From: a virus
Lineage: Duplodnaviria > Caudoviricetes
DNA: 64,000 nt
Reading direction: 5' to 3' (one strand)
IMG/VR virus record: IMGVR_UViG_3300025087_000689
The notes beneath the pieces were generated by a model. That model did not search any database and was not told where the DNA came from. It saw nothing but the letters and a program-made list of their open reading frames with translations. Positions 5,160 through 63,309 of this stretch are shown piece after piece. Both the position numbers and the translations under genes were made by a program. Position 1 is the stretch's first letter. The number at the start of each line of letters is the position of its first letter.

Positions 5160-5356
5160 TGCCACAACTCAATATTAGTATCACGTTAGATAATATAGAC
5201 TCTGAAATAGACGCCAACCAGTTAGCGTCCACCATTGAGAATATTATAAGACAAAATAGCGGAATAGATAATATACAAACTAGTATTTATGATAATGATG
5301 GAAGTAATAGTGGAAATCCTATTATGGCACAGAACATTATGAGGAAGATAAAGTAA
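5159..5356 (+). CDS. Small hypothetical protein (65 aa)
   Basis: TAATG overlaps with both neighbours indicate translational coupling. No recognisable motif. Confidence 0.7.
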   Translation: MPQLNISITLDNIDSEIDANQLASTIENIIRQNSGIDNIQTSIYDNDGSNSGNPIMAQNIMRKIK

Positions 5357-14087: not shown

Positions 14088-15365
14088 ATGTCTATAACCC
14101 AAATTTCTCGCTCTCAGTTTGATATACTACGTGACGCTAGGGAAAACTTAGTACAAAATGTAGGCGTCAGTGCTGATAATGAAACATCTACATCGTTGAA
14201 TTTGCTTAAATCTATGTCAAAAGAAGTGGCTTCGATGTGGGATCGTATGAATACACTATTACGTATGGGTTTCATTACGACAGCTTTCGGTGAAGGTCTA
14301 GACGAGATAGGTGTATTTTTACAAGAACCAAGAGCTGGTTTTAAAAGATCAATGGATCTTAGTACAACTAACCTTAAATTTTATCTTGATGAATCATATG
14401 CTAGAGACATAACTGACTTACTTAATAGGTATTTAACTATCAGGGATCGTAATGAGTTACTTGAACAGGGTGTAATAGATAGTGCAACTAATCCATCATT
14501 GATTAATATTCCCGCGAACTTACTGGTAACTAATAATGATGGTACTATTTCATATACTGTCATGAATTCTATGACTTTATCTAATACACAAACATCTGAT
14601 TTTAGTCCTCTTATAGCTACAGGCACTGGTTCTAGTTTTAATGCAGCTCCTGGAACATTAGTTAGACATAATCTAACTTCTATCTATCCTATCTTATCGA
14701 AGGTAAAAGAAGCTATTAAAGTAAAAAATCTTTATGGTATTCGAAATGGTGGTGATATAGAGGGCGATGAAAACTATAGATTTAGACTTTCGAATAAAGT
14801 AGTAGCCGCTGTATCTGGTAATAACGCATCCATTCGCCAAGCTGTTTTATCGGTTCCTGGTGTAGTCGATATGGCTCTCATCCCTCGTACTCATGGTAAT
14901 GGAACATTTACCATCTTTCCTAGGACCTCCGATCCTATTCTGTCAGATGGCGTCATGACTGCGGTTGAAGCAAGTGTGCAGAGTGTTATAGCTGGTGGAA
15001 CTATTGTATATGTAGATGCACCAGATTATCTTGCTGTAGCAATGAGACTAGAACTTCGATTCTTACCTGGGGCCGATAAGAATGCTCTTTTTGCTAATGC
15101 TAGACTTGCGGTTATGGATTATATTAACAATCTAGATTTGGGCGGAGAGATAGTTATTAATGAAATCATCCAGATTGTTATGTCTTTAGATGATAAGATT
15201 ATGGATATGAGTATTCCTCAATTTGGATTTGGTTTTCTCGATAGAGTAACAGGTGCTATTACTTCGTATACTCCACTTAGATTAATGAATCAGGTGGCCG
15301 ACTACAATCAAAAATGGTACACTAATAGTAGCCTCTGTTCCATTTGTCAAGCAGGAACTAGATAA
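14088..15365 (+). CDS. Baseplate J-like wedge protein
   Basis: Motifs FITTAFGEGLDEIG, GGDIEGDENYRFRL and SIRQAVLSVPGV, plus a C-terminal DYINNLDLGGEIVINEII, are typical of the baseplate J/gp47 family. Confidence 0.9.
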   Translation: MSITQISRSQFDILRDARENLVQNVGVSADNETSTSLNLLKSMSKEVASMWDRMNTLLRMGFITTAFGEGLDEIGVFLQEPRAGFKRSMDLSTTNLKFYLDESYARDITDLLNRYLTIRDRNELLEQGVIDSATNPSLINIPANLLVTNNDGTISYTVMNSMTLSNTQTSDFSPLIATGTGSSFNAAPGTLVRHNLTSIYPILSKVKEAIKVKNLYGIRNGGDIEGDENYRFRLSNKVVAAVSGNNASIRQAVLSVPGVVDMALIPRTHGNGTFTIFPRTSDPILSDGVMTAVEASVQSVIAGGTIVYVDAPDYLAVAMRLELRFLPGADKNALFANARLAVMDYINNLDLGGEIVINEIIQIVMSLDDKIMDMSIPQFGFGFLDRVTGAITSYTPLRLMNQVADYNQKWYTNSSLCSICQAGTR

Positions 15366-16936
15366 TGCTTCCATCAAGAAGAGCCTTCCATCCTACGATG
15401 TATGCAGCTGGAATCCTATCTAGATTTCCAGCGTGGATGAAACTACATAATAAAGACTCAGTAGGATATAGATTCACTGATGCTATTCTTGGTAATGAAC
15501 TAGAGTTATTCGCCAATACACTACAGATATATAAAGACTATACTTCAATAGTTAGATCACCCATAGATACATTAGAATATCTATCCCAGATAGAGTTACC
15601 TTACTTTCTTAAAGAGAGTACTATTTATACAACAGAAGATATTCCTATTTACGTAGTTCAAAACGAAATGGAGTTTCTTAATAATATACCTACCAGAATT
15701 GCGAACACTTTAAGTAGAATTTCTCCATCTGGTTTAGATGGAGCTAATATAGTTGGATTAGAGTGGCTTGATGGATTTCCAAGTGGTGTTCTTGCGATCA
15801 AAAGAGATGTGGATGATATTACACCTAGTTCTCTTTTATATTATGATATCATTAGTAAAACAAATAGTATTTCTCTAACACCGTCGTCTGGTATTATATT
15901 GGGTGTAGGTTATGTTGGACTTGGTCAAAATGCTTCATGGGATGAAGCGATACCAGAATCAACACAATCATTGAGAAGTAAATATCCAATTAATTCATGG
16001 ATTACTATTAGTGGTGATGTTAGTAGTACTATGCCATCTGGAGTTACTTGGGATAAACAAAGTTTTATATATCCAGAAACTGACATCAAAACATATTTTC
16101 AGAGGTTATTAAATAACCCATATGGGTCAGGAGTATACGATCAGGCTGATATCGAACTAGTATTTGCTCCTATACCTGGAACGATTAAAGTATATGATGT
16201 CTTTAACACTACTGTCTCGGGAACAGCAACTCAAGAACGTACGCCAACTCTTATACCTTCTTCTGGATGGAATGTATATCAATTCACATCTGGTTATTAT
16301 GCTGAAAATGACTATGGTGAATTAGAGTTCAGACAGCATCCGTGGACTTATAAAGGATACGATAATCCCATTCCATGGGAAATAACACCAAAAGATATAC
16401 AAGATGAAATAATTGCAAGGGAAGGTTCTGGAGTCCCAATTGTACCAACTCTAATCGGTAATGTCTCTTGGAGATTACTACCGTCTGGTGGATATGTTGA
16501 TGATGAAGTTTTTCCACATAGTGGTACTTTTAATTGGATTGATGGTACTAGTGGTAGTGGTAATATAATTCGTTTTAGTGGTCATTTCTCCAAATATGAA
16601 GTTCATTATCAATATCGATTATATGAAAATATAACTCAAATATCAGCTGATCCAAAAGAATCATATAAACCAGCCACTCCAAGCGGAGGACCTTTATACT
16701 TTATAACTAATACAGATTTCTTTCAAAATATTCATATTGAGACCAGTTTATCTGATGCTAATGCAATTCGCATTGATCCATACTCAGTTAGACCAGGAGT
16801 TACATTATATTATACTCTAAGAATGAATACTAAATTTGAAGATATATGGGACGACGCAAGAACAACAGATAAGACTGTGCAATTCTATAAACATAATATA
16901 GGTTATACAGATAATCTAGGATTACGTAATGGCTAA
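15365..16936 (+). CDS. Baseplate/tail structural protein, Ser-Gly rich
   Basis: 523 aa, coupled to baseplate J by TAATG. About 16 SG dipeptides. Confidence 0.6.
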   Translation: MLPSRRAFHPTMYAAGILSRFPAWMKLHNKDSVGYRFTDAILGNELELFANTLQIYKDYTSIVRSPIDTLEYLSQIELPYFLKESTIYTTEDIPIYVVQNEMEFLNNIPTRIANTLSRISPSGLDGANIVGLEWLDGFPSGVLAIKRDVDDITPSSLLYYDIISKTNSISLTPSSGIILGVGYVGLGQNASWDEAIPESTQSLRSKYPINSWITISGDVSSTMPSGVTWDKQSFIYPETDIKTYFQRLLNNPYGSGVYDQADIELVFAPIPGTIKVYDVFNTTVSGTATQERTPTLIPSSGWNVYQFTSGYYAENDYGELEFRQHPWTYKGYDNPIPWEITPKDIQDEIIAREGSGVPIVPTLIGNVSWRLLPSGGYVDDEVFPHSGTFNWIDGTSGSGNIIRFSGHFSKYEVHYQYRLYENITQISADPKESYKPATPSGGPLYFITNTDFFQNIHIETSLSDANAIRIDPYSVRPGVTLYYTLRMNTKFEDIWDDARTTDKTVQFYKHNIGYTDNLGLRNG

Positions 16937-18953
16937 CATATATATTCTTAATGTACCTACAGATTATGATAGCATTTCTGGTGCTATTGGAGCAATCATC
17001 AATAGCGGATTAACGGATTATGATAGAGGTATAATTAATATTGAGACCAGTGGGTCTTATATAGCATCAGGTGTAGGATGTTATCAAATACCATCCGGTA
17101 CATTAGAAATTGGAAGCACCGAAAATAATGTGCATCTCGATAGTATGTATTTCTTAAATTCAGGTAATATTCAAGTATCTAATGTTCGTATAGATCTTCT
17201 TAGTATTAGTGGTTATGGACAGCTTCAACTATTTGATGTGTCTGGTTCTACTATATCTGCTAGTGGATTAAGTTCAGTTAATATTACTAGCGGGGTTATC
17301 GGAACGTTACTCGATGTTACCGATTCTGATAGTCTAATTCTCAATGATGTTTATTCTTCTGGTAATTGTAAATATAATATAACGCGAGTAAGTTCAGTAA
17401 ATATTTCTTCTGGTGATTATTCAAACTACGATGATACTGGTTTCAAATTAACCTTGGATGTTTGTAGTGGAATATATATTAACAAAATAAAAGGTGCGAA
17501 TATTTCTGGAAATTTACTATTATTTTCTGGTTGTCCTGATATAACTATGAACCATGCGTCTTTGGCCAGTAATATTTCTGGTTATACAATGACTGCTTTT
17601 GTGTCTGGTGGTGGTTTGGCTTGTTCTGGATTAATTGAGTATTCTATTATTGTTGGTAATGCTGGATCTGGTATGGGTCCATTCGATATCTACGATGCAC
17701 AATTTATCACGGTTAGTGGATGTTGCATATATAATTTTATAGATGATGAAACTTATACTGGATTATCTGGATTTTATTTTAATAAAGATCCATTATTTGT
17801 AAATGCATCTGGCGGAGATTTAAGGCCAGATATTAACTCACCTTGTGTTAGTAATGCGGATTCTATTGAAATCGTAGAAGCTTTAAGTGGCGTTACTGTT
17901 GAGACTGTTCAACTTAATAAAGAAGCTATTAAATTTTATCTTCGTGATCAGGATATTAAAGCCGTTATTCCTTCTGGTATCTATGTTGTTGGTAGTGGTC
18001 TAGCCGTCTTTTTTAAAGCTGACCCGAGTCTTGATAATAATATGGATATCTTAATTCATAAACAATATAAGGTTCTTGGTAGCGGAATAACATTTCAGAG
18101 TTTTCAAAATACCGCCGGAATAATTGGATTTGATTCAGACTACAAATTAATACCATATATAGACTACGCATCAAATGCGGTTATGTATTATGTTCAACCG
18201 TTTACTATGTTATCGTTTAGTGATATGGTTAATAGTGCTAGTGCCACATTACAAGATATAGAGGTATCTGGAAAATTTAAATACAATGGGTTTACTAGGG
18301 ATAGATTTCAAGATAGCGATGGAACTCCGTTGTATTGGGTTGGTGAGGAATATAATAACTATTTATATGGATATTCTATTCTTTCAAACGAGAAGGTTAT
18401 GACTTATCCTTTATTTAATAGTTCTGGTGTGTCACCTTCAGTTACTTTATCTGATTTGAATTATCTTAGTAGAACTTCTACGCAAGCTAATATATGGTCT
18501 GATAAGGTATATGTTGATGATCATTATGAATCAAGAAATATATCGATTGATAATCAGGATGGAATATTTAAGTTTAAATCATTTGAAAAAGACACCAGTT
18601 TAGGATTAGAAGCTATCGGTACATTGGGTGATTGGTTAGTAGTATCGGCCCGTCAACAATATAAAGATGATTCAGATGTAGTTTCTACTAAACATAATCT
18701 TTATTTTTATAATAAATATGAGATAAATCCTTTCGAAGAACCAATTAAAGTATTTAGTGGAGTGATAGGATTAGACGATGTAACTATTGGTGATTTGACT
18801 TTTAATGATGTTGGTAATTTATTAATCTCAGTTTCTGGTTATATAAATTTTTATAAATTGTTCTATGATTATGCCTTACTAACCAGATTACCGAATGGAA
18901 CTATTAAAAGCACTCTTCTCTTTAGAGAGGACTATACCGGAGTGAAGTTATAA
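16929..18953 (+). CDS. Right-handed beta-helix (pectin-lyase-like) structural protein, strongly Ser-Gly rich
   Basis: Periodic N/S/I-rich strands in the N-terminal ~300 aa end in DPLFVNASGGDLRPDINSPCV (about 17787-17850), the DP.FV...GD..L...SP cap typical of beta-helix/choice-of-anchor-Q domains. About 30 SG. Confidence 0.6.
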   Translation: MANIYILNVPTDYDSISGAIGAIINSGLTDYDRGIINIETSGSYIASGVGCYQIPSGTLEIGSTENNVHLDSMYFLNSGNIQVSNVRIDLLSISGYGQLQLFDVSGSTISASGLSSVNITSGVIGTLLDVTDSDSLILNDVYSSGNCKYNITRVSSVNISSGDYSNYDDTGFKLTLDVCSGIYINKIKGANISGNLLLFSGCPDITMNHASLASNISGYTMTAFVSGGGLACSGLIEYSIIVGNAGSGMGPFDIYDAQFITVSGCCIYNFIDDETYTGLSGFYFNKDPLFVNASGGDLRPDINSPCVSNADSIEIVEALSGVTVETVQLNKEAIKFYLRDQDIKAVIPSGIYVVGSGLAVFFKADPSLDNNMDILIHKQYKVLGSGITFQSFQNTAGIIGFDSDYKLIPYIDYASNAVMYYVQPFTMLSFSDMVNSASATLQDIEVSGKFKYNGFTRDRFQDSDGTPLYWVGEEYNNYLYGYSILSNEKVMTYPLFNSSGVSPSVTLSDLNYLSRTSTQANIWSDKVYVDDHYESRNISIDNQDGIFKFKSFEKDTSLGLEAIGTLGDWLVVSARQQYKDDSDVVSTKHNLYFYNKYEINPFEEPIKVFSGVIGLDDVTIGDLTFNDVGNLLISVSGYINFYKLFYDYALLTRLPNGTIKSTLLFREDYTGVKL

Positions 18954-21718
18954 TGAGTTATCTTTATTGGCCGTCTGGCTTAGCACCTTATACAGCTTAT
19001 ACACATATTACTGATAGAACTACTCAGTTAAATCATCAGTCTATTATGGATGGTTTAGCTAGAGATATAGGATGGCTCCAACATAATATTAACGCAACTA
19101 ATCTGTTTGCGTCTGGTTATGTTACACCGATCCTATCTGGCTTCTTTAGAAATATTGATACTAACTACCTATATGTGGATAGTGTACAGGTTCGTACTCT
19201 ATATCTATATAATATTATGAATCCCAATATGCCGGATATTGATATACTAGGAACTAATTTAAATGTCGTAGATGCTGCATTTAGAAATAATAATTTAACT
19301 GTATTGAATTCGTTTAGGGGTTTGGAAGAATTTAGTTTAAATTCTAGCGGATTTATATATAATCCTCCTTCTATATCTGGAGGTATATATGATTTCTATC
19401 TCGCGAGAAATGGGAATTCTAAATTACTGGGAGGTAGCGTTGGTAATTTTATTCTTAATAGTGGCAATATCAATGTTGATTCTAACCATAGAATAATCAT
19501 AGAAAACCTAGGTTCTTTTTCTCCTTCTGGTAGTATTAGTGAATCTGGTATATACTGGAATTCAATTACAGGTCACGACCATAGAGATAATAAAATTAAA
19601 GCGAGTACGATAATAGCAACTGATCTAACTTATAATACTGATGTTGAAATTATAACAGATGAAGGATTCATAGAAGTTACTAGTGGTGTATTAGATGCTA
19701 ATAAGTATTTTCTAGAAGTTTACTATGATAGTATAGGATTCCATGAAGTTGATTATTCCGTTAGTGGTGTTTATATATGCGATATACCTGCTTTAACTGG
19801 CAATGTATCTGAATTGGATATTGGTACGTGTCCCATGATATCTTATAATGGTAAAGTATATGCTGCAAGTTTAGCCACTCCAACTGGTAGTATAAACTTA
19901 TCTGATACATACATTTACTCATCGGAAGATTTTTATACATGGAGCGGAGTATTAGTCTCTGGTGATTATAGACCGATAGTATCGGGAATTGCCACGGTTG
20001 ATGGATTTGCTATAAATTCTAATGTCTTGTATTTCTTATGGAATTTACAAGTATCTAGTGGTAACTATTGCGACGCTCGTTCTATTGATAATATAAGTTC
20101 TGCTACGCCTATAAAGTATCATATTAGCGGGTTCGCTCATGGTTCTTCCCGATACGGACTTGGTATTTCATCTGTAGAAAATGCTATATTATTATACGGA
20201 TACGAGTATCCTCATATATACGAATCAGGTATTCCAAAATGGGATAACCATACTATATTGTATAATTACGATTTGGATAGATACGAATCTTATCAAACAT
20301 CTAACGAACATCAACATATATCATTTAGTGGAGTTCCATATAAATATTCGTTTCCTTTTATTCAAGGTTTTGATATGTCTTCTTTTGATTCATCTCTATT
20401 CTGGTTAGATGGAACATATTCTGGTGGTATAAGAGAACCATACTATACTGATGCACAGAATGATGGTGTTTTTAAAAATTTGGTCGCCCCTAGCAATACA
20501 TTTAGTGGGTACTTCGGTGCTTTTTTTGGTAATGGATTTAGTGAAATTAGTTCTATTTTATTAACAGAACTGTCATATCATAATGGACAACGTGGATTAA
20601 ATACAGTGTATATTAACAGTGCATCAGCGAAACAGATGTATGGTGATATTATAGAAAATTTTAGTGAGTCTCCTTTACTTATTTTTGGTAATTCGACCAT
20701 TGCGTGTAACACAACTTCTAGTGGAACTATATTTGGAGGTTGTATCCCACTAGTTATGGATATAGATAAAAGGTTATTATATAATATTGGTATTTCTGGT
20801 ATTCTAATAACTTCTCAAAATGTAGATTATAGTCCTAATATTTTACGTGGTTCGAAGAGTCTACTTGATACGTCTATATTGTTTAGAATTAATGCTTATC
20901 TGTATTTTCCTGGTGTTATTACAGGTGTTGGCAGTCTTATGGTTAGTAATCTTTTTAATTATGAGTTAGGTGAGGCTAGACTTTGGACTGATTATCGTTG
21001 GGTTTCTGGGCAAAGAACAGAATTAATTAATTTGTGTCCATGGGACCCAGGTTTGTTAACTGTACCTTTTGGAGGTGCTAGTGGTTTATACTATAAACAC
21101 GAGCACGATGTAACAACATCAAAAATTAATTATACATCTATGTTGGTCGAATCTAGTGGAATTATAATACCCTCATCTACATTTGTTCATCCTGGTAATT
21201 TTCCAACGTTTTATGATAGACCAACTAAAGATGGTTTCTGGAGTACAAAAACGTTTGATTGGTATTACATTCCTCAATCTGATTATTTTGGTCCTCCTAA
21301 TAGAGCATACACAAAGACTTATCATTATATGCGGCCTCGTTGTCCTGTTCAACATAATGGAGTAGTATATTCTATTCTTGAATTTAATACAGGATTTAAC
21401 TATATTGGTCCTGATGGTTCAGAATATATTGATGATGATATACTTTATAGTGATCTTATTAAATATGGTAATGCTGTATATGGAGTTGGAGTAAAAGTTA
21501 TATTGGATGATAGAGGTAATTATAATTATAGTTTAGTTCTTAGTACAATAAAAAGAAATGTTTCAACTCAAGTTCCATTGTCGCAGGGAATTAGCGGAGA
21601 TAAACAAACACCTAAGTTTTTAATCCATAAAGGTCTATTATATATAGGTATAGGCAATGGTAGATTCTTGGTGAAGAAACCATCACATATTGATTTATGT
21701 ATAACTTCTAATTTATAA
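18953..21718 (+). CDS. Tail-fibre-like protein 1 (HxH motif, beta-propeller-like blades)
   Basis: 921 aa. GHDH at 19571-19582. Repeated xxYNGxVY-type blades. About 25 SG. Confidence 0.55.
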   Translation: MSYLYWPSGLAPYTAYTHITDRTTQLNHQSIMDGLARDIGWLQHNINATNLFASGYVTPILSGFFRNIDTNYLYVDSVQVRTLYLYNIMNPNMPDIDILGTNLNVVDAAFRNNNLTVLNSFRGLEEFSLNSSGFIYNPPSISGGIYDFYLARNGNSKLLGGSVGNFILNSGNINVDSNHRIIIENLGSFSPSGSISESGIYWNSITGHDHRDNKIKASTIIATDLTYNTDVEIITDEGFIEVTSGVLDANKYFLEVYYDSIGFHEVDYSVSGVYICDIPALTGNVSELDIGTCPMISYNGKVYAASLATPTGSINLSDTYIYSSEDFYTWSGVLVSGDYRPIVSGIATVDGFAINSNVLYFLWNLQVSSGNYCDARSIDNISSATPIKYHISGFAHGSSRYGLGISSVENAILLYGYEYPHIYESGIPKWDNHTILYNYDLDRYESYQTSNEHQHISFSGVPYKYSFPFIQGFDMSSFDSSLFWLDGTYSGGIREPYYTDAQNDGVFKNLVAPSNTFSGYFGAFFGNGFSEISSILLTELSYHNGQRGLNTVYINSASAKQMYGDIIENFSESPLLIFGNSTIACNTTSSGTIFGGCIPLVMDIDKRLLYNIGISGILITSQNVDYSPNILRGSKSLLDTSILFRINAYLYFPGVITGVGSLMVSNLFNYELGEARLWTDYRWVSGQRTELINLCPWDPGLLTVPFGGASGLYYKHEHDVTTSKINYTSMLVESSGIIIPSSTFVHPGNFPTFYDRPTKDGFWSTKTFDWYYIPQSDYFGPPNRAYTKTYHYMRPRCPVQHNGVVYSILEFNTGFNYIGPDGSEYIDDDILYSDLIKYGNAVYGVGVKVILDDRGNYNYSLVLSTIKRNVSTQVPLSQGISGDKQTPKFLIHKGLLYIGIGNGRFLVKKPSHIDLCITSNL

Positions 21719-21726
21719 GGTAAATT

Positions 21727-27737: not shown

Positions 27738-27746
27738 GAGGATAAC

Positions 27747-29363: not shown

Positions 29364-29374
29364 GATGGAATTTT

Positions 29375-29401
29375 ATACTAGAAAATTAGTATAAATATAT
29401 A
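29375..29401 (+). promoter_or_regulatory. Class B bipartite promoter-like motif ATACTAG-N12-AATATATA
   Basis: Intergenic. Shares TTATACTAGAAAAT with the copy at 14040. Also contains TATAAATA (29390-29397). Confidence 0.65.
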
Positions 29402-29412
29402 CGAGGACTTTG

Positions 29413-31299: not shown

Positions 31300-33596
31300 T
31301 GTTTATATTTGAAGATAAAAATAACGATTATTTAAATCAAGAAGTTGATTTAAGATTAAGTGAACTAACATCGCAAGGTTTAATTAAATCTGAAGAAGAA
31401 TATAAACGCGTCATTCAAAATACACTTAATAGTATTGATGCCGATCTTCAGCGTATTACAGATGTTAAAAAATATGCAGTTAAAAGCGATGAGACTATTT
31501 CATCTAAACAATTAAATGAACTTTTCACTGATTTAGAATCAGATGTTAGAATTTTACATAAAGAGATCTCTGATATTCATCATGTTATTGATCTTACTTT
31601 TGATCGAAATAGATTATTTTATAGACGAATTAAAAATAGAATAGCCGCTATTTGGAAAGAAATTCAACATTTTAGAGAGAATACATTTAATATTGAAGCG
31701 AGTAATTATACGTTTTTTGAATCATTCAGTGAAAATTCTGTCATGCATTTAAGTGGACTAACCATAGATAAGAAAACAGGGACTCTAGTTTTAGCTCCCG
31801 GTTATATTAATTCGTTTAGTGATTCATCTGATATTGCATCTATTGATATGAGTCTATATCCAGCAGCGAATAAAGATGGTGGAGTTATTGATACCACAAA
31901 TATTAAAAACACATTTGACTATAACTATAGTTCTGGAGATCACACACTTCTTAAAGATGGTCTTTGGAAAGTTCAAATGTTAACTGCTGATATACCAGAG
32001 ATCATATTAGATATATTTGGTAGAGGAATGAATCGTACATATCGGGGTATTGTGACTAATATTGAAATAACATTCACTAGCCAAAAAATTATTAACGAAA
32101 TCAATGTAGATCCTTATGGTGATTTTTCAACTAAGGTTATTGGTGTACGATATCAGGTTGATGAAACATCAACTGAATGGCTTGATGTAGTGGATGAGAA
32201 TGGAGTAACAGTTACTAGTTCAGATGTTGATTGGATAGTACTAAGAAATTTCGCACCTATATCAGCTAAGAAGTTACGTATATATTTTTATCAACCTAAT
32301 TATCAGATCATTAGTCGGCTTCTAAATAGCGTGGATAGCATGGTAGATAAGATGGTTAAAGCTCTTATTGAACAGCGTTTTGAGAAAGTTAATTATAAAT
32401 ATAAATCTAAAGATCAATTTCCAAAATGGGATACATCCGAGGAAGCAGATCTCTACGATGAAATTATGAAAATTATCGATGAGGGTGGTGATATTAGTAC
32501 ACTTGAATCTCAAATTACAAACTTATTAGTACCACAACCAATAGATATCTCTGCTGATATTAGAAATTGGAAATTATTTAATCTCGGTGCTTGGTCTATT
32601 GATCCAAGAAATGTCGCCTATTCTCCTCAATCTACTGGAGTATATATTTCTCACGACCCTAGAGATCATACATCTGGATTTAAAGTAACTAATGGAGTTC
32701 CAAGTTATGTAAAATTATATACACAGCAATCGGAACCTTCCACTACATCTATTGAATGGTCTCTTCTTGTAGATACAGATAATGTTAACTATAAAGAGAT
32801 TCCGATTATTCCTAATAATGATATATGGAGAAATGAAACTGCCAAATATAACGAACATTTGAATCTTAAATATTATTCTCGTGCGGCCAGACAAGTGGTA
32901 AATCATAAAAATATGTATAATGTTTTTAAATTGGATTTCCCTATTCACCCAGCATATATTGCATCTATCGTAATTACAGAGAATGGTTTACCTTTAGCCG
33001 CTAGTAACTATCGTTATTTTGAATTTTATAATAGTACTGAACTTTATGTTCCGAATGCGGATTTAACTAATAATGGGATATATACTATCAAGTATATACC
33101 AGCTATGTTGGATACGGTTAAGTGTTGGACAATTATTCCAAATACCTTACCAAGAGCAGGACAAGTTGATATCGGAACAATGTGTGTTTTTGCTACTAAA
33201 CAAGCGGCTATCAATATGGTTAATCTTTTAAAACAATCTATTACAATAGCTAATAAACCAAAAAATGTAGTTGTATCAAAAGGATATACTATAGTGTCTC
33301 AATTATGCACTGTCAAAGAATATAACTTTTGGTTTTTAAATGGAACAGTTAATACATTTATTGATAGTGCACTGGATAATGACAATGACAGAAATAATCA
33401 AATAAGTTGGTTTGCCACTAATGATAAGAATTTTAAATATAATATGAGTGATACTCGAGTAACATGGTTATTTAGAACCAATGTTTTTATTACACAGAAA
33501 GTAACGCCTTATAGTGAAAATGGATATGATGAATATACATGGAAAGAATTACCGGCTGCTGTTCCATCTGTTAAAATAAAGGAGATCCAACACTAA
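31299..33596 (+). CDS. Structural protein, paralogue family A (N-terminal coiled coil followed by F.ESF...D..TGTL.L)
   Basis: 765 aa, TAATG-coupled. The N-terminal architecture is shared with the ORFs at 34396, 40780 and 44517. Confidence 0.6.
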   Translation: MFIFEDKNNDYLNQEVDLRLSELTSQGLIKSEEEYKRVIQNTLNSIDADLQRITDVKKYAVKSDETISSKQLNELFTDLESDVRILHKEISDIHHVIDLTFDRNRLFYRRIKNRIAAIWKEIQHFRENTFNIEASNYTFFESFSENSVMHLSGLTIDKKTGTLVLAPGYINSFSDSSDIASIDMSLYPAANKDGGVIDTTNIKNTFDYNYSSGDHTLLKDGLWKVQMLTADIPEIILDIFGRGMNRTYRGIVTNIEITFTSQKIINEINVDPYGDFSTKVIGVRYQVDETSTEWLDVVDENGVTVTSSDVDWIVLRNFAPISAKKLRIYFYQPNYQIISRLLNSVDSMVDKMVKALIEQRFEKVNYKYKSKDQFPKWDTSEEADLYDEIMKIIDEGGDISTLESQITNLLVPQPIDISADIRNWKLFNLGAWSIDPRNVAYSPQSTGVYISHDPRDHTSGFKVTNGVPSYVKLYTQQSEPSTTSIEWSLLVDTDNVNYKEIPIIPNNDIWRNETAKYNEHLNLKYYSRAARQVVNHKNMYNVFKLDFPIHPAYIASIVITENGLPLAASNYRYFEFYNSTELYVPNADLTNNGIYTIKYIPAMLDTVKCWTIIPNTLPRAGQVDIGTMCVFATKQAAINMVNLLKQSITIANKPKNVVVSKGYTIVSQLCTVKEYNFWFLNGTVNTFIDSALDNDNDRNNQISWFATNDKNFKYNMSDTRVTWLFRTNVFITQKVTPYSENGYDEYTWKELPAAVPSVKIKEIQH

Positions 33597-34396
33597 TGGC
33601 AACTCCTAATTATGCTATTTTAGCTCAAGGATATTTAACTCGTTTAGAGAGTATTAAAAAAGATTTGCAGGCTGGAAATTATACTGATTCCAGTTTAGAT
33701 AAAACTATTACAACTCTTAGTACTATACAATCTACTATTAATTACTTTGGTTTTTTAAATATTGTTACTAGTCCGCAGACTGCTAGAATACCAATTTTGA
33801 TTAGATATATTTATAACTTAATTAAGGTTTTGAGAGATTTAATTAAACAAAATTCTGAGATAATGTATCCACCAGAATATGTGTTTCCTAAGAATCCAAA
33901 TCTAGTCCAGTATCTTGAACCACAAAAAGTAATAAACGAAATATATAAAGATGATGGATCTGGATTAAAATTTGAATTGGGATTTACTGGGACGTTTAAT
34001 GTTATTAGAACTAAATATCCTCCATATCTTGATAGATCTTTTTTTGATTTTAAAAATCAAGAATGGACAGAAAAACAAATAACAGTTAATATAGCAGATA
34101 ATCCGAATGTAAAAGATATAACACCATACTTCACAAGTTCAGTTGTTAACTTTTCTGGTACATCTTCTGGAATACATGATAAGATAGTATATTACTTTGA
34201 TGGAGAAAAGATTGTAACTAACTTTGATTTTAGTAATGTTGATGATAGAAAAACAGTAAAAATTTCATATAAGAAGCTTTTAAATTCACTGCGAGTCAAA
34301 GCTACTTTAAGAACTAATACACTTGGAATTTCTTATTATACCCCAGTTGTAGATCAGTATACTTTATTAGTAGATAAACAAAGGGTTCTAAACTAA
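33596..34396 (+). CDS. Structural protein
   Basis: 266 aa, TAATG-coupled. C-terminal LRVKATLRT...YTPVVDQYTLLV motif shared with 39238, 40780 and 44517. Confidence 0.6.
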   Translation: MATPNYAILAQGYLTRLESIKKDLQAGNYTDSSLDKTITTLSTIQSTINYFGFLNIVTSPQTARIPILIRYIYNLIKVLRDLIKQNSEIMYPPEYVFPKNPNLVQYLEPQKVINEIYKDDGSGLKFELGFTGTFNVIRTKYPPYLDRSFFDFKNQEWTEKQITVNIADNPNVKDITPYFTSSVVNFSGTSSGIHDKIVYYFDGEKIVTNFDFSNVDDRKTVKISYKKLLNSLRVKATLRTNTLGISYYTPVVDQYTLLVDKQRVLN

Positions 34397-35916
34397 TGGA
34401 TACCATTCGTAAACAACTAGTTGATGATAAACGAGCTAATGATATATTTGCTCGTGTAAGACTTCGTTTATCAAATGAAAGAATTAAAACAAATGAGAAA
34501 TACCTTGAAATATTGATTGATGAAATAAATAAATATTTTTCTGATTTATCTACTAGCACTATCAATTCGAATGATCTTCCAGACGAGAGAACCGGACCGT
34601 TAGTTAATAACCATAATAAATTATTAGTAGATATTGCTTCTGATTTAGATAAAGTAAATAAAAAAAGAATAGAGGTACAATCAGTAATTACCAAAGCCGT
34701 TAATTATTTATCAGCTGAGAGAGTTAGTGTTAATAACGCCGTTAGTAAAATGCATGCTAGAATTATTAATCAAAAATTAAGAACATCAGCTAATGATAGA
34801 CATATAACATTTTTTTCAGAGTACTTTACTAATGATAAATTCGTTGATAAAAAGTTAAGTAAAAATGTCAGTGTTGATTCCGCTTTAAGTGCCTTGACTC
34901 TTTCATCTCTAGTTGAGAATAAAGATAATTCTAATATGATAGATACCAATGAAATATTTGTGGAAGTTAAACTTAAAAATAATGAATCAGTAAATAGATT
35001 TGCTATTTATCCAGCGAGTCAACCTATTAATCAAATACATATGGCTGGGTTTGGACGCACCGTTACTAACAATGATGTAATAACACCAATGAAAAACTTA
35101 AATAGTGCTGGTACAAATTCTGAAAAATATAATAATATTCAGAAACAATGTGTAGTTACGGGTGAGATTACAGATCCTTTTACATTTGGTGAATTTGAAT
35201 TAATATTTAATGATTTTAAAAATCAAAATCTTCGTAACACCATAATTAAGTCTATTAAAAGATCAGTTCCAAATGCCGCTAACTTAGATGTAGATCCCCA
35301 ACATGTTGTTACTAATAGCACAGGACCTTTAGGTTCGTCTTTTAATGGTGCATATTATCTTCCTAATAAAACTATAGCCACGGATAATGTTGTTTTAAAA
35401 GAGTTAATTCAATCTGTTGGATTAAAGTTTAAATTAAAACAAGGTCAATTACGTGGATTACTATCTTATATACGGATTAACTTTGTTCCATCTGAAACTA
35501 ATTTATCTATACCTCAGATAAATTATAACGAATCTTATATTAAAGATTCTAATGGTATTATTTATAAACCATTTAAAGAAATGAAATCTGTTATAAATGG
35601 CGACGTCGAAGATAGATTGCTTATGTTAGATTCAGTTGTTGTGTCACCTATAGAATTTTATATTGCTTTTCAATTACCTAACCTAATAGCTATACCTATT
35701 AAAAGCTATACTGGTCTTTGTTGGAAAGTAAGATTACATGGTTCTGATGTGACTGGATATGCTAGTGATAATCAAGTGTTTACTTCTTCATCTAATAAGT
35801 ATATCTTTGTATATCATGATGTTATTAGAGATGCATCAGATACAAATTTTCAAGATATTAATAAATCTCGATTAAAAGAAATAATGTCACATTATGATAT
35901 TACCACTTTAACTTAG
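34396..35916 (+). CDS. Structural protein, paralogue family A
   Basis: 506 aa. HNKLLVDIASDL...coiled coil...FFSEYFTN...VSVDSALSALTL. Confidence 0.6.
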   Translation: MDTIRKQLVDDKRANDIFARVRLRLSNERIKTNEKYLEILIDEINKYFSDLSTSTINSNDLPDERTGPLVNNHNKLLVDIASDLDKVNKKRIEVQSVITKAVNYLSAERVSVNNAVSKMHARIINQKLRTSANDRHITFFSEYFTNDKFVDKKLSKNVSVDSALSALTLSSLVENKDNSNMIDTNEIFVEVKLKNNESVNRFAIYPASQPINQIHMAGFGRTVTNNDVITPMKNLNSAGTNSEKYNNIQKQCVVTGEITDPFTFGEFELIFNDFKNQNLRNTIIKSIKRSVPNAANLDVDPQHVVTNSTGPLGSSFNGAYYLPNKTIATDNVVLKELIQSVGLKFKLKQGQLRGLLSYIRINFVPSETNLSIPQINYNESYIKDSNGIIYKPFKEMKSVINGDVEDRLLMLDSVVVSPIEFYIAFQLPNLIAIPIKSYTGLCWKVRLHGSDVTGYASDNQVFTSSSNKYIFVYHDVIRDASDTNFQDINKSRLKEIMSHYDITTLT

Positions 35917-35924
35917 GATAATAC

Positions 35925-38900
35925 ATGAGTTTTTATAAAAATAATTTAATTGATGTTGGTTTAAATCAAGTAATATATACTGTTACTGAACAACCATATT
36001 CTTTTAATATTTGTTCATTAAATAATGTTGTTACTCCAAGTATATCTGGAAATTTAAATTCAACAAGAATTAGAGTTCCTTTTGATATGATTGTATTTGG
36101 TAGGGTTCGTTTATTAACACTATCCACTAATTCACTTAATTGGGAATATTTTTGGAGTAATACTACTACATATGCTCAAACTAACTGTATGGTTGGTGTT
36201 AATCAAAATTATTTTAATAAAGTAGGAACTACGAATACAGCTACTTATGGATGGCCTGTTCCGATATATGGTGGAGTCAGCGAACCAAAATTTTATTATT
36301 CTATTAATCCAACAAGTAGAACATCTATTCCAATCAATACAGGTGGTAAACCATGGGCTTATTTGGAAAATTTTATTGCCATGCCTGTGGCTAATGGAAC
36401 TAGAAGTTATTCAACAACTATAATCAGTATCACCGATAGTTATCAAGAACTTCAACGTGAACTACAGTATGATAGCTCAAATGAGATTATACATTACATC
36501 ACTCTAGCTAAGTATAGTTTTAAATATAAAGGTTTAATACAAACACAATTATATCAATCACCATTAGAATATATGCGAGGTCCTTATAATATTACTTTAT
36601 TATTGGATTTTAAATATCATATTTCTAATCCTACCAAATTAGTTGGTCTCGATATTCTAAATAAATATATTCTTAATATTGGTGAATCTACTGGTATTAA
36701 TCCGTCTGTAAGTTTAGTTCCCGGTGGAACTTGGAGTATTGGTGTTGATTTTGGTTCTTTTCCAACGACTAGTTTTGGTGTTAGACAACCAAGCGTATTC
36801 AAATATACTTTAACTCGAACAAGTGACACGTTTTTATGGAACGACCATAAGATATATTATCCTACAACAGTTGATCAATCTGAAATAAATAAATTTAGTT
36901 CTTTTCAAAGCACACCAACGGAATCCGGTGTTTGTGTTTTATATGAACAAGGAAGATTTCGTACAAGTGAATATTTTCATTATGATCAAAATGGAGTTCC
37001 GGAATTAGTTGATTGGAGATTATCGATAATAGAAAAAAGCCATTGGGTACCTGAGAAACGTGCTCCAGCATCAAGAGAATTAAGTAGATATAGGACGCTT
37101 CCTTATGTATGGTCTCTTAATCCTAGTGGTGTTATTAATACCACTGATGGAAGAGCCTTTCCCATTCTTTCTCCAGTTCGTCAGACATATAATAGCCAGT
37201 ACTGTTCGTCAGCTATTTTTTCTCTTCCCGATGAAACATCTAAATATACTATTGAATTGCTTCCACTTTATGGATTCAATGTAGTGGCTAGTAACTTTCC
37301 TGGCGGTATTGGTTCAATGGTAGCATTGAATGATAAAAGTATTAAAGCACAAGAAAGAGAATTACAGATAGCTGGAGTGACTTATACAACCGCTGGAGAT
37401 GATTTCTATATTCTTTATATTCTAACTAGAGAAAATCTATACATGCATGTAATATATGGAAATAATAACTCGGCAATATATACTTATCCTGGTAGAAATA
37501 ATATCATTGGTGTATATAGTAACTCTCCATTATCTGAAAATCTAACATGCGAGTATCTTACTACGGTGCAAAAGACTTTATTCTTTACACTGGAGACTAA
37601 GATTTATAGAATAAATATGTCTTCTATGATTCCTACGGCTTCTCTAAATACTGAAATAACTGATACAGCTGTTAACTATGATATACTTTTAACTTTTTCA
37701 AATAAAGAACAGGCAAACGAAGCTAAGAAACGTATTGATTTAAATCAATGGGAAGTTAGAACTACAACAGGTCAACTTATTACTATTGATAAAAAAGAAT
37801 CTCGTGTCGGAAAGAGAGACGGCACTGACTTAGAGAAAGTATATATAAGAATAAATCTTATACAATATCTTCGCGATAGTGGTGCTTTAGTGGTAGAAAA
37901 TCTAAAACTATATGTTAGGGCTATTGATTTTCATGTACCTTACATTATAGTATGCACTATTACCGTTGATGGTAGAATATTACAACTAGGAAGTTTGACA
38001 TTTAATTATAAAGGAATAACTTGTAATGTTCCATTAAGTGCTTCCTTTGCTAATGGTGTTATACATACGACATTAAATGATTTAAACACTAGTACTTTTA
38101 CTGTTAGTGCACCTGGTGATGTAGCTAATGTGCTCTCCACTAAATTAACATGGGCTGCGGATAATCAAAATTGGATGACTGTTGGTGAATGTACATCAAG
38201 AGAAGGGACTGGTTCCTCAGGGTTTTTTAATAATGCATATCCTGCTAAATATCTAATATGGAATAAAAAGAACCCCACAGAAACTCAATTTCTGATTCAT
38301 GGTAATACTTCGACGCCAGTAAGATCAAATACAGTTTCCGGTAATGTTGGAACTAATAGCGGATTAAAACTCGTTGTAACCAGTAAGTGTTACGAAAAAA
38401 AAGAATACATGTTGCCTCAAATAACAGTGTATGATGATCATAAATTTATAATTGGAAAGATATACAATGACAATTTAGTAGATATAGATAGAGTTCCAAA
38501 TGGATTTTCGACAAATTATTCTGTTAAAAATAATAATATGTTTGTTCCAAAATTAAGTGATAATAATAATTATGCCTATACATTTAACTTTAGATGCAGT
38601 CCTAATTATTTAGATATAACTGGAAGATATACTATTTATTACGAGAATGATACAAGCGATCCTATATCTGGCCGTATTAGTACACCAATGATTAAACGCT
38701 GGTGGATTATAGGTATACCAGTTAAACAAGATAATCCTTATTTACCATATGTTAATTATATTCGTGGTATTACTGCTGATGGAGGTGCAATTACTTTAAC
38801 TAGTGGCACGCTTAATGAGGTATTAACTGAGGGTGTTTATCCTCCAACTAGAATAACAGAATATAATTTTGACTACAAACATCGTCCGAATTATGCTTAT

Positions 38901-39224
38901 AGATCTGTTTCTAGAGCTTATCTTCATAATGAATATACAGATAGACTTGTTCTACATGTTACTAACGCGACAGGAAATACCAATTGTGGAACGGTTTGGA
39001 CTAGTGGAACTTGTACTGTTCCTTCTGGTTATATGGATTTTAAAGATGTTCAGTTTTCTGATTCTAATTTAGGTATTGCATCATTAACAAGTGGTATGAT
39101 TCCTAATGGTTTATATGGCATATTTTTTATAGTTGAAGATACAATAGGCCATAGAACTGGTATTGATTTACTTCAGTTATCGACTTCTACTCAACTACCA
39201 GCATCTGGTGGATTTAATTATTAA
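35925..39224 (+). CDS. Large beta-rich structural protein (fibre/adhesin-like)
   Basis: 1099 aa, rich in T/N/S/Y, inside the structural operon. No family recognised. Confidence 0.55.
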   Translation: MSFYKNNLIDVGLNQVIYTVTEQPYSFNICSLNNVVTPSISGNLNSTRIRVPFDMIVFGRVRLLTLSTNSLNWEYFWSNTTTYAQTNCMVGVNQNYFNKVGTTNTATYGWPVPIYGGVSEPKFYYSINPTSRTSIPINTGGKPWAYLENFIAMPVANGTRSYSTTIISITDSYQELQRELQYDSSNEIIHYITLAKYSFKYKGLIQTQLYQSPLEYMRGPYNITLLLDFKYHISNPTKLVGLDILNKYILNIGESTGINPSVSLVPGGTWSIGVDFGSFPTTSFGVRQPSVFKYTLTRTSDTFLWNDHKIYYPTTVDQSEINKFSSFQSTPTESGVCVLYEQGRFRTSEYFHYDQNGVPELVDWRLSIIEKSHWVPEKRAPASRELSRYRTLPYVWSLNPSGVINTTDGRAFPILSPVRQTYNSQYCSSAIFSLPDETSKYTIELLPLYGFNVVASNFPGGIGSMVALNDKSIKAQERELQIAGVTYTTAGDDFYILYILTRENLYMHVIYGNNNSAIYTYPGRNNIIGVYSNSPLSENLTCEYLTTVQKTLFFTLETKIYRINMSSMIPTASLNTEITDTAVNYDILLTFSNKEQANEAKKRIDLNQWEVRTTTGQLITIDKKESRVGKRDGTDLEKVYIRINLIQYLRDSGALVVENLKLYVRAIDFHVPYIIVCTITVDGRILQLGSLTFNYKGITCNVPLSASFANGVIHTTLNDLNTSTFTVSAPGDVANVLSTKLTWAADNQNWMTVGECTSREGTGSSGFFNNAYPAKYLIWNKKNPTETQFLIHGNTSTPVRSNTVSGNVGTNSGLKLVVTSKCYEKKEYMLPQITVYDDHKFIIGKIYNDNLVDIDRVPNGFSTNYSVKNNNMFVPKLSDNNNYAYTFNFRCSPNYLDITGRYTIYYENDTSDPISGRISTPMIKRWWIIGIPVKQDNPYLPYVNYIRGITADGGAITLTSGTLNEVLTEGVYPPTRITEYNFDYKHRPNYAYRSVSRAYLHNEYTDRLVLHVTNATGNTNCGTVWTSGTCTVPSGYMDFKDVQFSDSNLGIASLTSGMIPNGLYGIFFIVEDTIGHRTGIDLLQLSTSTQLPASGGFNY

Positions 39225-39237
39225 GAGGTAATGAACA

Positions 39238-40770
39238 GTGAATATTAATCAAAGAGGTATAGTTTCGGGTTTTTTAAAAGCCACGGATATATCTGTAAGT
39301 GGTTTAGCTCCTTATTTTTCTATCGGTAAACCATTACCAGTACCAGCCATTAGTATATATGTTAGCGGCACTTTAACTGATATAGAGAGTCAATTAGGTA
39401 ATTATAAAGATAGTGAAATTAGTTTATATGCTTGTGCCGTTCCATCTGGAACCAATGGACCTGTTAGTGCAGTTGATTTATTATCAGGATATGTATTGGG
39501 TGGTTATGGTCAACTTCCATGTAGAAAGATTGAAGGTTCTACTTTATTCCCTTCTCATAGCACATGTACAATTACGAAAGTTTCTATTAGTGGAGTCCCT
39601 CCTACGTTTACTACTATAAGTGGAAATACATATTATGATATATATGCTACTCATGTTCTTACAACTATTACTGATTCTAAAAGAGTCGTGGCTGGATATG
39701 GCACTCTTCAGGTATTAGGTGGGTATTTAACACAAGCTCCTTATCCAGATCTTAGTGAACTTAATTCTATTATAGAAGATCATGGTGAAGTTGTAACGAA
39801 TAATACACTTATGACATTTGTATTTCGGTTTCCAGAAACATTGAGTTTGTTTGCGAATAGTGGTTCTTTTGGAGCTGGTTATCCTGATTTGGCTGCATCA
39901 GGTATGATACAAATGAGTTGTTCTGGTAATTATAGTGGTGTGTATTTTCCAGCTACTTATGATGGAACTAATGATAACATCAATCCAATTTATCAGTATC
40001 TACAGCCAAGTGGTACTATAACATGGAAGATTCCAAAAAAATTTACTGTTAATCCGGATGTTTATGGATGGTATACGTTTCGACTTAATTATATTAATTC
40101 CTCTGGTTTGTTATCACCTACTGTTAATATTGAATTTTTTAGTCGTCAATTAAGGAATTTTGATCAAGCTATTCCAGCGTTACCTGATAACTATCAGATT
40201 CAAGATGGAGATATAGCAGGACCTTATGTAGTGACTGTAGAAGGTGAAACGGCTCGCTCAAGAATATCTTTGGGTGTCCGAGATATAGATTTGGCTGTAG
40301 TGCAATACAATGAGAATGGTACTTATATATCATCTCCATACACTAGCGAAAAACCGATCTATGGTCTTAGTATGGAAGTTAATGAGAGTGCACCTAAAAT
40401 AACAAACTTTAATATATGGGATATGGTCAAATATTATATACAGTTTGATATTAATGATAATGGTAAATGGTATCAAATCTCACCTAAACCAAGAATAAAT
40501 GAATTGGATATCAACGGAGTTAACGTTCCAAATATATTCTTATTAGATAGTAATTTATTCTCTAATGATAAAGTTCTAGATATATATAATATGATATCGT
40601 TTATTGATCTAAATAAAGAACAATATAATTTTCGCGTAAAAATAGAACTTAATACTAATATAACTGGTTCGCATGGACAATGGACTCCCCAAATATATGA
40701 TTATAAAATATCAGTTATAGATAGAGAAGCATTACTTGCTTCTAATTATGAAAGATATCTTTTTAATTAA
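39238..40770 (+). CDS. Structural protein, Ser-Gly-rich N-terminal half
   Basis: GTG start after AAGAGG. About 13 SG in the first ~290 aa and none after. C-terminal FRVKIEL...WTPQIYDYKISV. Confidence 0.6.
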   Translation: MNINQRGIVSGFLKATDISVSGLAPYFSIGKPLPVPAISIYVSGTLTDIESQLGNYKDSEISLYACAVPSGTNGPVSAVDLLSGYVLGGYGQLPCRKIEGSTLFPSHSTCTITKVSISGVPPTFTTISGNTYYDIYATHVLTTITDSKRVVAGYGTLQVLGGYLTQAPYPDLSELNSIIEDHGEVVTNNTLMTFVFRFPETLSLFANSGSFGAGYPDLAASGMIQMSCSGNYSGVYFPATYDGTNDNINPIYQYLQPSGTITWKIPKKFTVNPDVYGWYTFRLNYINSSGLLSPTVNIEFFSRQLRNFDQAIPALPDNYQIQDGDIAGPYVVTVEGETARSRISLGVRDIDLAVVQYNENGTYISSPYTSEKPIYGLSMEVNESAPKITNFNIWDMVKYYIQFDINDNGKWYQISPKPRINELDINGVNVPNIFLLDSNLFSNDKVLDIYNMISFIDLNKEQYNFRVKIELNTNITGSHGQWTPQIYDYKISVIDREALLASNYERYLFN

Positions 40771-55907: not shown

Positions 55908-56417
55908 ATGCCTCGGAGAATGACTTTATTAACAGATTTAGATATTAACAAATATAAAGAAGGTGACTTATTCTATGCACCTAAACTTGGATATAAAAGA
56001 CAAGGTTATATTAAATTTGTTTCTTGTCCAAGATGTGGAAAGTTAAAGTTTGCTTACGCTCATAAGAATGGAACTTTAGAGAATCACGAAACTAATCCTT
56101 ATTGTCGTTCATGTATTCAAATTGTTAACAATGAAAAATTAGGATTTCAAAACCATGCACGTTATAAAGCAGCTAAAATGAAAGATAGTCACGGTTATAT
56201 TTCTATAACCATAGATAAAAATGATTCTTATGTTTCAATGTGTAGACATAGTAAACGTGGACATATTATTTCTGAACATAGATATGTTATGGCTAAATCA
56301 TTGGGACGATGTTTAAAAACACATGAAGTGGTACATCATTTACCGTTTACGATTTTACAAAATAGAATTAAATATTTAGAAAATGTTCTTAAGGAGAATA
56401 ATATACAATATGATTAA
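55908..56417 (+). CDS. HNH endonuclease-like protein with Zn ribbon and an apparent deletion in the HNH core
   Basis: CPRCG...CRSC and GYI...EHRYVMAKSLGRCLKTHEVVHH, then no NG.K.DN..ENL segment before LQNRIKYLE. Confidence 0.7.
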   Translation: MPRRMTLLTDLDINKYKEGDLFYAPKLGYKRQGYIKFVSCPRCGKLKFAYAHKNGTLENHETNPYCRSCIQIVNNEKLGFQNHARYKAAKMKDSHGYISITIDKNDSYVSMCRHSKRGHIISEHRYVMAKSLGRCLKTHEVVHHLPFTILQNRIKYLENVLKENNIQYD

Positions 56418-58974: not shown

Positions 58975-58983
58975 TGATAAGGG

Positions 58984-63227: not shown

Positions 63228-63234
63228 AATAAAA

Positions 63235-63264
63235 TTGGTATTATAGATTAATAATAATTATAAT
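63235..63264 (+). promoter_or_regulatory. Class A sigma70-like promoter TTGGTA-N18-TATAAT
   Basis: Intergenic, one mismatch in the -35 box, same 18-nt spacer. Confidence 0.55.
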
Positions 63265-63309
63265 ATAGGTGTAGGACCGCAAGAAGAAAACTTGAGAAAG
63301 TGTGTTAAA

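Follow-up and report, generated by a model that had tools for sequence, protein, structure and literature searches.

A directional Ser-Gly bias in the outer virion proteins of an uncultured contractile-tailed phage and its possible use as a glycosylation motif

Introduction

In eukaryotic proteoglycans, Ser-Gly (SG) is the site of xylosylation, and the final glycan is sulfated. The mycobacteriophages Che8, Corndog and Myrna reportedly glycosylate their virions with phage-encoded glycosyltransferases (GTs), as Freeman et al. are said to have described in 2023; the modified sites are said to lie on capsid and tail-tube proteins, to follow no SG code and to involve one or two GTs. PMC11256854 also mentions these systems. 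The heptosyltransferase TibC modifies Ser, not Thr, in loops of the beta-helix of TibA, an N-S-G-G site among them (PMC4358343). Here we analyze a window of 64,000 nucleotides from an uncultured phage (Caudoviricetes; IMG/VR virus record IMGVR_UViG_3300025087_000689) in which a block of large virion-protein genes is enriched in SG, but not in GS, and a cluster of GT genes lies downstream on the same strand. A preliminary description of the window had suggested that SG might be a recognition code for these GTs. The window lies on the minus strand of the 160-kb record, for which CheckV estimated a completeness of 69%; the same phage recurs as 221-kb contigs in many assemblies (at least 25), its GC content is about 32%, and its genes are arranged as in a large phage with a contractile tail.

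Results

We defined the SG-rich set as nine open reading frames (ORFs) at 15365-31299 and 35925-40770 and compared it with the remaining 100 ORFs (37,488 aa) of the 160-kb record; individual proteins are named here by the first coordinate of their ORF. Computed for each protein against its composition, the SG excess holds. Pooled, the nine ORFs contain 175 SG where 55.7 are expected (observed/expected ratio (O/E) 3.14, z 16), while the remainder contains 121 against 149.8 expected (O/E 0.81), and no enriched ORF was found outside the nine in the 160-kb record. Among all 400 dipeptides, SG ranks first in the nine ORFs by far, the second being GV (z 4.8), and Ser precedes 32% of all Gly in the set. 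The enrichment had earlier been put at about ten-fold; the excess is real but was overstated, as it amounts to 7.9-fold in raw density (2.54 against 0.32 SG per 100 aa in the remainder) and 3.1-fold over composition. Its direction is clear: GS occurs 55 times in the nine ORFs (O/E 0.98, against 1.01 in the remainder), and the 16929 protein alone has 30 SG and 6 GS. The preference is also specific to Ser, with TG (O/E 0.76 vs 1.15 in the remainder), NG (0.70 vs 1.02) and GG (0.62 vs 0.87) all lower in the nine ORFs and DG showing little change (1.14 vs 1.03). The low counts first noted in the hub (4/2431), an RNAP-like protein (7/1717) and the primase (5/1208) proved exact, and the abrupt stop of SG at domain boundaries could be seen in 100-aa bins.

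The SG serines are encoded by TCN (62%) and AGY (38%) codons, near background proportions; the presence of both kinds had been noted at the outset. With serines drawn from both codon families, the bias must act at the protein level. This near-background usage, together with the protein-level conservation described below, rules out a cause at the DNA level, and GC content is ruled out by two genomes that lack the bias, the IMG/VR record G001 (30% GC) and phage A511 (36% GC). The usual context of the dipeptide is [V/I/P/A]-S-G-[V/I/T/Y/L]-[Y/F/I/L]; this extended motif occurs at 7.1 per 1000 aa in the nine ORFs against 0.24 in the remainder, a 30-fold difference, and K, R and E are rare in the SG flanks.

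Relatives of the phage were found only as ENA and Logan contigs, and one 57.7-kb contig was read along. Gene order is conserved in the relatives, and SG is abundant or scarce in the same proteins as here: the 15365 homologues of three relatives have O/E values of 3.1-3.6, the 29410 homologue of a relative has 20 SG, the wedge homologue stays at about 0.5-0.8, and homologues of 31299 and 34396 stay at about 1. An exhaustive profile search of 1.84 billion representatives with the 16929 family returned only 12 clusters at E < 1e-30. The 15 full-length members of the family, the most distant at 27% identity, each retain 18-30 SG (O/E 3.4-5.1), with 18-27 SG in the homologues at 27-56% identity. 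About 12 SG sites in this family are near-invariant, and many others are clade-specific, having disappeared from one clade and arisen in the other; the 27747 family (17 sequences down to 37% identity, O/E 2.9-4.5) shows the same turnover. Since the number of sites holds through this loss and gain, selection acts on density in addition to position. Ser within SG is also better conserved than other Ser (0.69 vs 0.37). No relatives of the 16929 family or the wedge were found in IMG/VR, none of the 18953 family in JGI metagenomes, and no match in a phage collection by tblastn or megablast.

Proteins upstream of the window were read on a 221-kb contig. The tail sheath (956 aa; L214:4804-7674), encoded some 17 kb before the window begins, matches phrog_16991 (3e-75), with its PHROG matches falling within residues 631-950. 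Its variable middle, residues 192-520, is presumably the outer domain and holds 12 SG (O/E 3.4); residues 1-191 and 521-956, the latter conserved, hold none against 3.1 expected. The bias thus extends past the block to which it had first been assigned. Contractile sheaths have an inner layer built from their conserved domains, and inserted domains face outward; tail tubes are expected to be all-beta. The three tube-like paralogues have 8 SG against 6.7 expected, the hub (2431 aa, window 5356-12651) has 4 against 10.8 (O/E 0.37, z -2.2), the gp25-like protein has no SG bias, and two more virion proteins encoded upstream show mild enrichment (O/E 2.0-2.6). With the sheath arranged in the usual way, the bias follows exposure and not beta-content. 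No other observation argues as strongly against a generic habit of structure.

To compare the phage with six reference phages, we scored each ORF by a criterion of z at least 3 and at least 6 SG. Eight ORFs pass in this phage and none in phiKZ, KVP40 or A511; S-PM2 has four weak ORFs, RSL1 has two that are non-specific, and the baseplate and fibre proteins of T4 reach a z of at most 2; like the first three of these phages, T4 has no ORF at z 3 or above. T4, phiKZ, KVP40 and A511 therefore rule out a generic property of myovirus baseplates and fibres. In S-PM2 (AJ630128), ORFs 63517, 75087 and 103494 show a mild directional SG excess (e.g., 9 SG vs 2 GS; 6 vs 1), and there may be a weaker SG habit in cyanomyoviruses. 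At an O/E of 0.81, the remainder of this genome is slightly low in SG, and no other phage genome in the comparison has an overall value below it. Avoidance of SG in non-target proteins was considered as a signature of a sequon and found to be inconsistent, the remainder being at 0.81 here and at 1.10 in G003, a second biased phage described below.

For residues 1-270 of the 16929 protein, AlphaFold2 (AF2) with the family alignment predicts a right-handed parallel beta-helix (predicted local distance difference test (pLDDT) 85-95), and the 20 SG of this region lie at strand ends of the model. Foldseek matches to the model are tailspikes of phages and lyases or epimerases acting on polysaccharides; they include the Dettilon tailspike, AlgE6, RbmB and PL6 lyases, with 6f7k, 5lw3 (TM 0.49 by target) and 9ozl among the matched entries. 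No Pfam beta-helix model matches the protein at E <= 0.01. The AF2 model of the 27747 protein is poor (pLDDT 53) and is not a beta-helix, and in it, too, SG flank strand ends. No homology among the SG-rich families was found by BLASTP, and hhalign gave at most 29% probability with shallow profiles, so that a single paralogous domain family as the source of the bias has no support from these comparisons. The families had been described as unrelated folds, which agrees with their lack of sequence or profile homology, although a confident model is available for one fold only.

Pfam bore out the GT cluster, at 56383-64000; its GT4, GT9+GT2 and GT2 genes share the strand of the SG-rich ORFs and follow the last of them at a distance of 15.6 kb. 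The first gene encodes a GT4-type glycosyltransferase with an intein (56383..58974 (+), 863 aa; Pfam Glycos_transf_1 and a faint HINT match), whose orthologue in a relative has 433 aa and is intein-free; a phmmer search of the PDB returned chlorovirus B736L as the best solved relative (2e-7), plus intein matches. It is followed by a two-domain GT9 + GT2 glycosyltransferase (58984..60969 (+), 661 aa) and three further GT2 genes (61559..64000 (+)), all recognized by Pfam. The 58984 protein is the best candidate for a protein O-glycosyltransferase. Its GT9 assignment is supported by PF01075 (Glyco_transf_9), which matches residues 242-301 with 31.8 bits against a cutoff of 22, and members of its family carry precomputed PF01075. 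With the family profile, the GT9 part matched 3tov (6.5e-13), WaaF (1.1e-10), TibC (2.6e-4) and WaaC (8.8e-4) in the PDB, and the GT2 part matched GmaR, the Listeria flagellin O-GlcNAc transferase, as its nearest solved relative (9e-9). A single-sequence search with the 58984 protein did not retrieve TibC at E <= 1. Membership in the BAHT family (TibC/AAH) was considered and rejected, as the GT9 protein 3tov and WaaF score above TibC. Four cysteines (C305/C309/C314/C321), invariant in 16 members of the GT9+GT2 family, lie between the catalytic domains just after the GT9 Pfam match, and may form a metal finger.

The operon runs about 16 kb past the window, for a pathway of about 22 kb in total. 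It encodes a C-methyltransferase with an intein, FdtA-type isomerases, a nucleotide diphosphate (NDP)-sugar epimerase/dehydratase, a PglD-like acetyltransferase and DegT aminotransferases, together with a methyltransferase, a sulfotransferase, CysD and CysNC for synthesis of 3'-phosphoadenosine 5'-phosphosulfate (PAPS), and a TauE permease. Pfam scans of 30 ORFs, comprising the operon and its flanks, found no Wzx, Wzy, flippase, polymerase, ligase, initiating phosphoglycosyl transferase or oligosaccharyltransferase, and the TauE-type permease was the sole membrane protein found in them. No GT14-type xylosyltransferase was detected. The gene content is that of a soluble pathway for rare, sulfated sugars, and as no lipid-carrier machinery was detected, the acceptor is probably cytoplasmic. 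The sugar C-methyltransferase (L008:13835-16102, minus strand) has Intein_splicing and LAGLIDADG matches that mark its apparent intein, and an ORF resembling a NUMOD3 homing endonuclease also lies inside the sugar operon.

In a relative at about 55% identity, the SG bias is accompanied by the GT genes, which follow ClpP and RusA and comprise the 433-aa GT4, GT9+GT2 and two GT2 genes; this co-occurrence is not independent evidence. In its GT cluster, a Cpn10 (GroES-like) gene lies between GT4 and GT9+GT2 (L011:12936-13229), with no match at the same place in the window. The GT9+GT2 family as a whole gave 624 matches, many of them 1040-aa GT4+GT9+GT2 fusions on contigs of 150-215 kb, and ten IMG/VR records with a homologue were examined (G001-G005, G007-G009, G011 and G012). 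G003 (IMGVR_UViG_3300018031_000005), a complete phage of 168.6 kb with terminal repeats and 33% GC, has 13 SG-biased ORFs with 151 SG (O/E 2.85; GS 1.13) in the context [P/A]-S-G-[V/I]-[F/W/Y/L]. Its GT4 and GT9+GT2 genes adjoin the SG-biased structural block on the opposite strand (region 38.9-84.3 kb). No homology between the structural proteins of G003 and those of this phage was detectable by BLASTP or with hidden Markov models of 16 families. ORFs 39761 and 40910 of G003 contain internal repeats of the type ..L.GGSGIE.S.SGNT..D.

The SG-rich block has its upstream edge at a Baseplate J/gp6-like wedge (14088..15365 (+), 425 aa; Pfam Baseplate_J 6e-22, phrog_6 2.5e-28), itself SG-poor with a single SG (O/E 0.4). 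The block opens with an SG-rich peripheral baseplate protein (15365..16936 (+), 16 SG in 523 aa, O/E 4.6), which has an Atlas feature match to the crAss muzzle C-domain with a score of 0.89; Atlas feature matches, to this domain and to Baseplate_wedge, score 0.81-0.89 and serve as leads only. Next come the SG-rich tailspike-like protein with the predicted beta-helix (16929..18953 (+), 30 SG in 674 aa, 20 of them in residues 1-270), an SG-rich baseplate/fibre protein (18953..21718 (+), 25 in 921 aa, O/E 2.7), and two fibre-like proteins with SG concentrated near the N-terminus: 21727..25536 (+), with 17 in 1269 aa and 11 of these in the first 270, and 25536..27737 (+), with 16 in 733 aa and 13 of these in the first 300. 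Two SG-rich virion proteins follow, 27747..29363 (+) (24 in 538 aa, O/E 4.0; phrog_21059 virion structural protein, 2e-15) and 29410..31299 (+) (21 in 629 aa, O/E 3.5). Three ORFs within the block are SG-poor and Gly-poor (31299..35916 (+); 765, 266 and 506 aa), and are SG-poor in the relative too. They are followed by a moderately enriched protein (35925..39224 (+), 1099 aa, 13 SG, O/E 2.1, mainly C-terminal) and by a virion protein (39238..40770 (+), 510 aa) that has all 13 of its SG in the first 290 aa and a C-terminus matching phrog_21108. For the eight proteins that the preliminary description had counted, all but the moderately enriched one, its SG counts were exact.

Upstream of the block, the order of structural genes is tail sheath, three tube-like paralogues, two small ORFs, giants of 2490 and 2355 aa, the 2431-aa hub, a 297-aa protein, a gp25-like sheath initiator and the Baseplate_J/gp6-like wedge, after which comes the series of large ORFs without Pfam matches. 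The three successive paralogues between sheath and giants (226, 464 and 499 aa; L214:7686-11500) match phrog_9206, "major head protein", a label that is probably misleading here, as from their position they look like paralogues of the tail tube. The structural module is separated from the replication module by genes for a Cas4/PD-(D/E)XK-like nuclease (window 47305-48297, minus strand; phrog_1706) and an Erf/Rad52-type annealing protein (window 48773-49381). The primase-helicase (window 49392-53018) has 1208 aa against 829 aa in the relative, and an Intein_splicing match under the Pfam cutoff points to an apparent intein.

Discussion

The SG motif of this phage is selected, Ser-specific, exposure-specific and rare, a combination that the formation of ordinary turns does not account for. 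We infer a modification, an enzyme and a glycan with a probability of roughly 40%: the SG serines would be O-glycosylated by the phage's own soluble pathway. The motif, usually [V/I/P/A]-S-G-[V/I/T/Y/L]-[Y/F/I/L], marks tight inter-strand turns in the outer virion domains, namely peripheral baseplate proteins, proximal parts of the fibres and the outer sheath domain, and in such a mechanism the exposed Ser would be the acceptor for cytoplasmic O-glycosylation. The candidate enzymes are the soluble GT4, GT9+GT2 and several GT2 proteins, sugars would be supplied by the rare-sugar and sulfation operon, and the outcome would be a glycan coat on the tail. A more detailed version, in which a proteoglycan-like coat of sulfated rare-sugar O-glycans covers tail, baseplate and sheath, and the sequon [P/A/V]-S-G-[V/I]-aromatic, placed on strand-turn-strand elements of structural proteins that are otherwise unrelated, is read in the cytoplasm by a BAHT/GmaR-like GT9+GT2 enzyme, strikes us as unlikely.

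Several observations weigh against glycosylation. Many SG of the 16929 protein form the regular rung-end turn x-N-I-S-G-N of its predicted beta-helix. Regular beta-solenoid turns had been named at the outset as a pattern that would speak against modified serines; they do occur in this protein, but a rung-end position is not decisive, because TibC heptosylates Ser at such beta-helix loops. Where homologues retain the Gly, Ser is replaced by T, N, G, A and D, residues expected at a type I turn. GT9 enzymes classically modify the lipopolysaccharide core at the inner membrane face, where no phage flippase is needed. Among the ten GT9+GT2-bearing records, G004 (196.5 kb) has only two weakly biased ORFs, six others (G001, G002, G005, G009, G011 and G012) have large S/G-rich ORFs in which SG about equals GS, and the fragments G007 and G008 have no biased ORF. 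Since most GT9+GT2-bearing contigs lack the bias, this GT family is not predictive of the bias and not sufficient for it. Two of five near-complete GT-bearing genomes are biased against none of the six reference phages, a difference that is not significant in so small a sample, and no relative without GT genes was found in the searches made. The proposal of a recognition code for the GT cluster is thus partly supported. In its favor, the bias is selected, Ser-specific and placed in outer domains, a soluble pathway is encoded in the same genome, GmaR and TibC are among the solved relatives of the GT9+GT2 protein, and the unrelated phage G003 combines homologous GT genes with the same motif; on the other side stand the rung-end turns of the 16929 protein and the unbiased majority of other GT9+GT2 contigs.

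Some of these observations lend weight to a rival that we consider nearly as likely as glycosylation. SG may be a purely structural, unmodified turn motif of fast-evolving, beta-rich accessory domains, favored by this lineage for closing tight turns and placed at i+2/i+3 of a type I turn or at beta-helix rung ends, with the GT cluster acting elsewhere, for instance on the host envelope or on DNA. The strand-end positions of SG in both models and the regular rung ends of the beta-helix fit such a motif, as do the turn-compatible replacing residues T, N, G, A and D and the many GT9+GT2-bearing phage contigs without bias, and P/A before SG with a hydrophobic residue after it matches a turn-then-strand geometry. 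A structural turn does not, however, explain why the preference is for Ser only, with NG, TG and GG depleted and DG neutral, why the bias is absent from the tube-like paralogues and from two parts of the sheath, why six reference myoviruses lack it, or why the same extended context recurs in the non-homologous proteins of G003.

A quite improbable alternative is that SG provides durability, in the form of chemically and proteolytically inert exposed turns that avoid Asn-Gly deamidation and protease-accessible loops, with no enzyme as reader. The limitation of the bias to outer domains, the NG O/E of 0.70 in the SG-rich set and the rarity of K, R and E beside SG agree with this idea, but DG, which is equally labile via isoaspartate, is not depleted (1.14), the NG depletion is partly arithmetic because Ser takes a third of the pre-Gly positions, and other environmental and gut phages tested lack such a bias. 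Similarly poor prospects attend another trans-acting reader, whether phosphorylation, acylation, sulfation via the PAPS genes or a chaperone that binds strand-SG-strand elements: the same short motif in non-homologous proteins, the sulfotransferase and PAPS synthesis of the operon and the Cpn10 gene inside the relative's GT cluster would suit it, but no protein-targeting kinase or acyltransferase was identified, the sulfotransferase sits among sugar-tailoring genes, and we know of no precedent for a mechanism with such a modification or a chaperone as reader.

If the SG serines are O-glycosylated by the phage, no earlier O-glycosylation sequon written in the sequence of a tailed-phage virion would precede this motif, and the large glycan operons of many jumbo phages, which lack a known target, would gain an acceptor. 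It would become possible to predict glycosylated surfaces of virions from sequence alone, with a bearing on phage stability, mucus adherence, recognition by immune and defence systems, and therapeutic phage design. Even if the Ser is unmodified, the bias is still a strong exposure-specific sequence rule, one that would help to distinguish the outer virion proteins of uncultured phages from the inner ones.

The known systems resemble this locus in different respects. The PbH1 and right-handed beta-helix motifs of tailspikes and polysaccharide lyases share the predicted fold of the N-terminal 270 aa of the 16929 protein, with its x-N-I-S-G-N rung ends, whereas no such periodicity is seen in the sheath domain or the eight remaining SG-rich proteins. 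Among solved structures, the GT2 domain of the 58984 protein comes closest to GmaR (PDB 22ao), a GT2 enzyme of the cytoplasm whose O-glycosylation targets are Ser/Thr residues exposed at the surface of flagellin, a filament protein. The similarity spans about 130 residues of the nucleotide-binding half only. To our knowledge, GmaR has no SG preference. Proteoglycan xylosylation has a Ser-Gly acceptor, as proposed here for the phage, and leads to a sulfated glycan, while the phage operon encodes PAPS synthesis and a sulfotransferase; it is an analogy only, and the proteoglycan sequon has acidic flanks, while those of the phage SG are hydrophobic.

The cytoplasmic Ser hyper-O-glycosylation of TibA and AIDA-I by TibC/AAH takes place at short inter-strand loops of a beta-helix (PMC4358343), which resembles the Ser-only SG bias at beta-helix turns seen here. 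TibC belongs to a GT9-like superfamily, as does the GT9 part of the phage enzyme, although the profile match between them is weak (2.6e-4). TibC has a Cys4 iron finger (Cys339/342/358/370) inserted in the C-lobe of its catalytic domain; the four invariant cysteines of the phage family, just after the GT9 Pfam match, recall it but are spaced C-x3-C-x4-C-x6-C against C-x2-C-x15-C-x11-C in TibC. TibC has an N-terminal beta-barrel and forms a dodecamer; the phage enzyme is fused to a GT2 domain. The substrates of TibC are autotransporters, and the putative substrates of the phage enzyme are tail proteins of several folds.

Like the mycobacteriophage systems, this phage carries GT genes in the same genome as its virion genes, and as in those systems the putative modification of its virion surface proteins would take place in the cytoplasm. 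It differs from them in having a rare-sugar and sulfation pathway of about 22 kb and a dipeptide bias dispersed over baseplate, fibre and sheath proteins.

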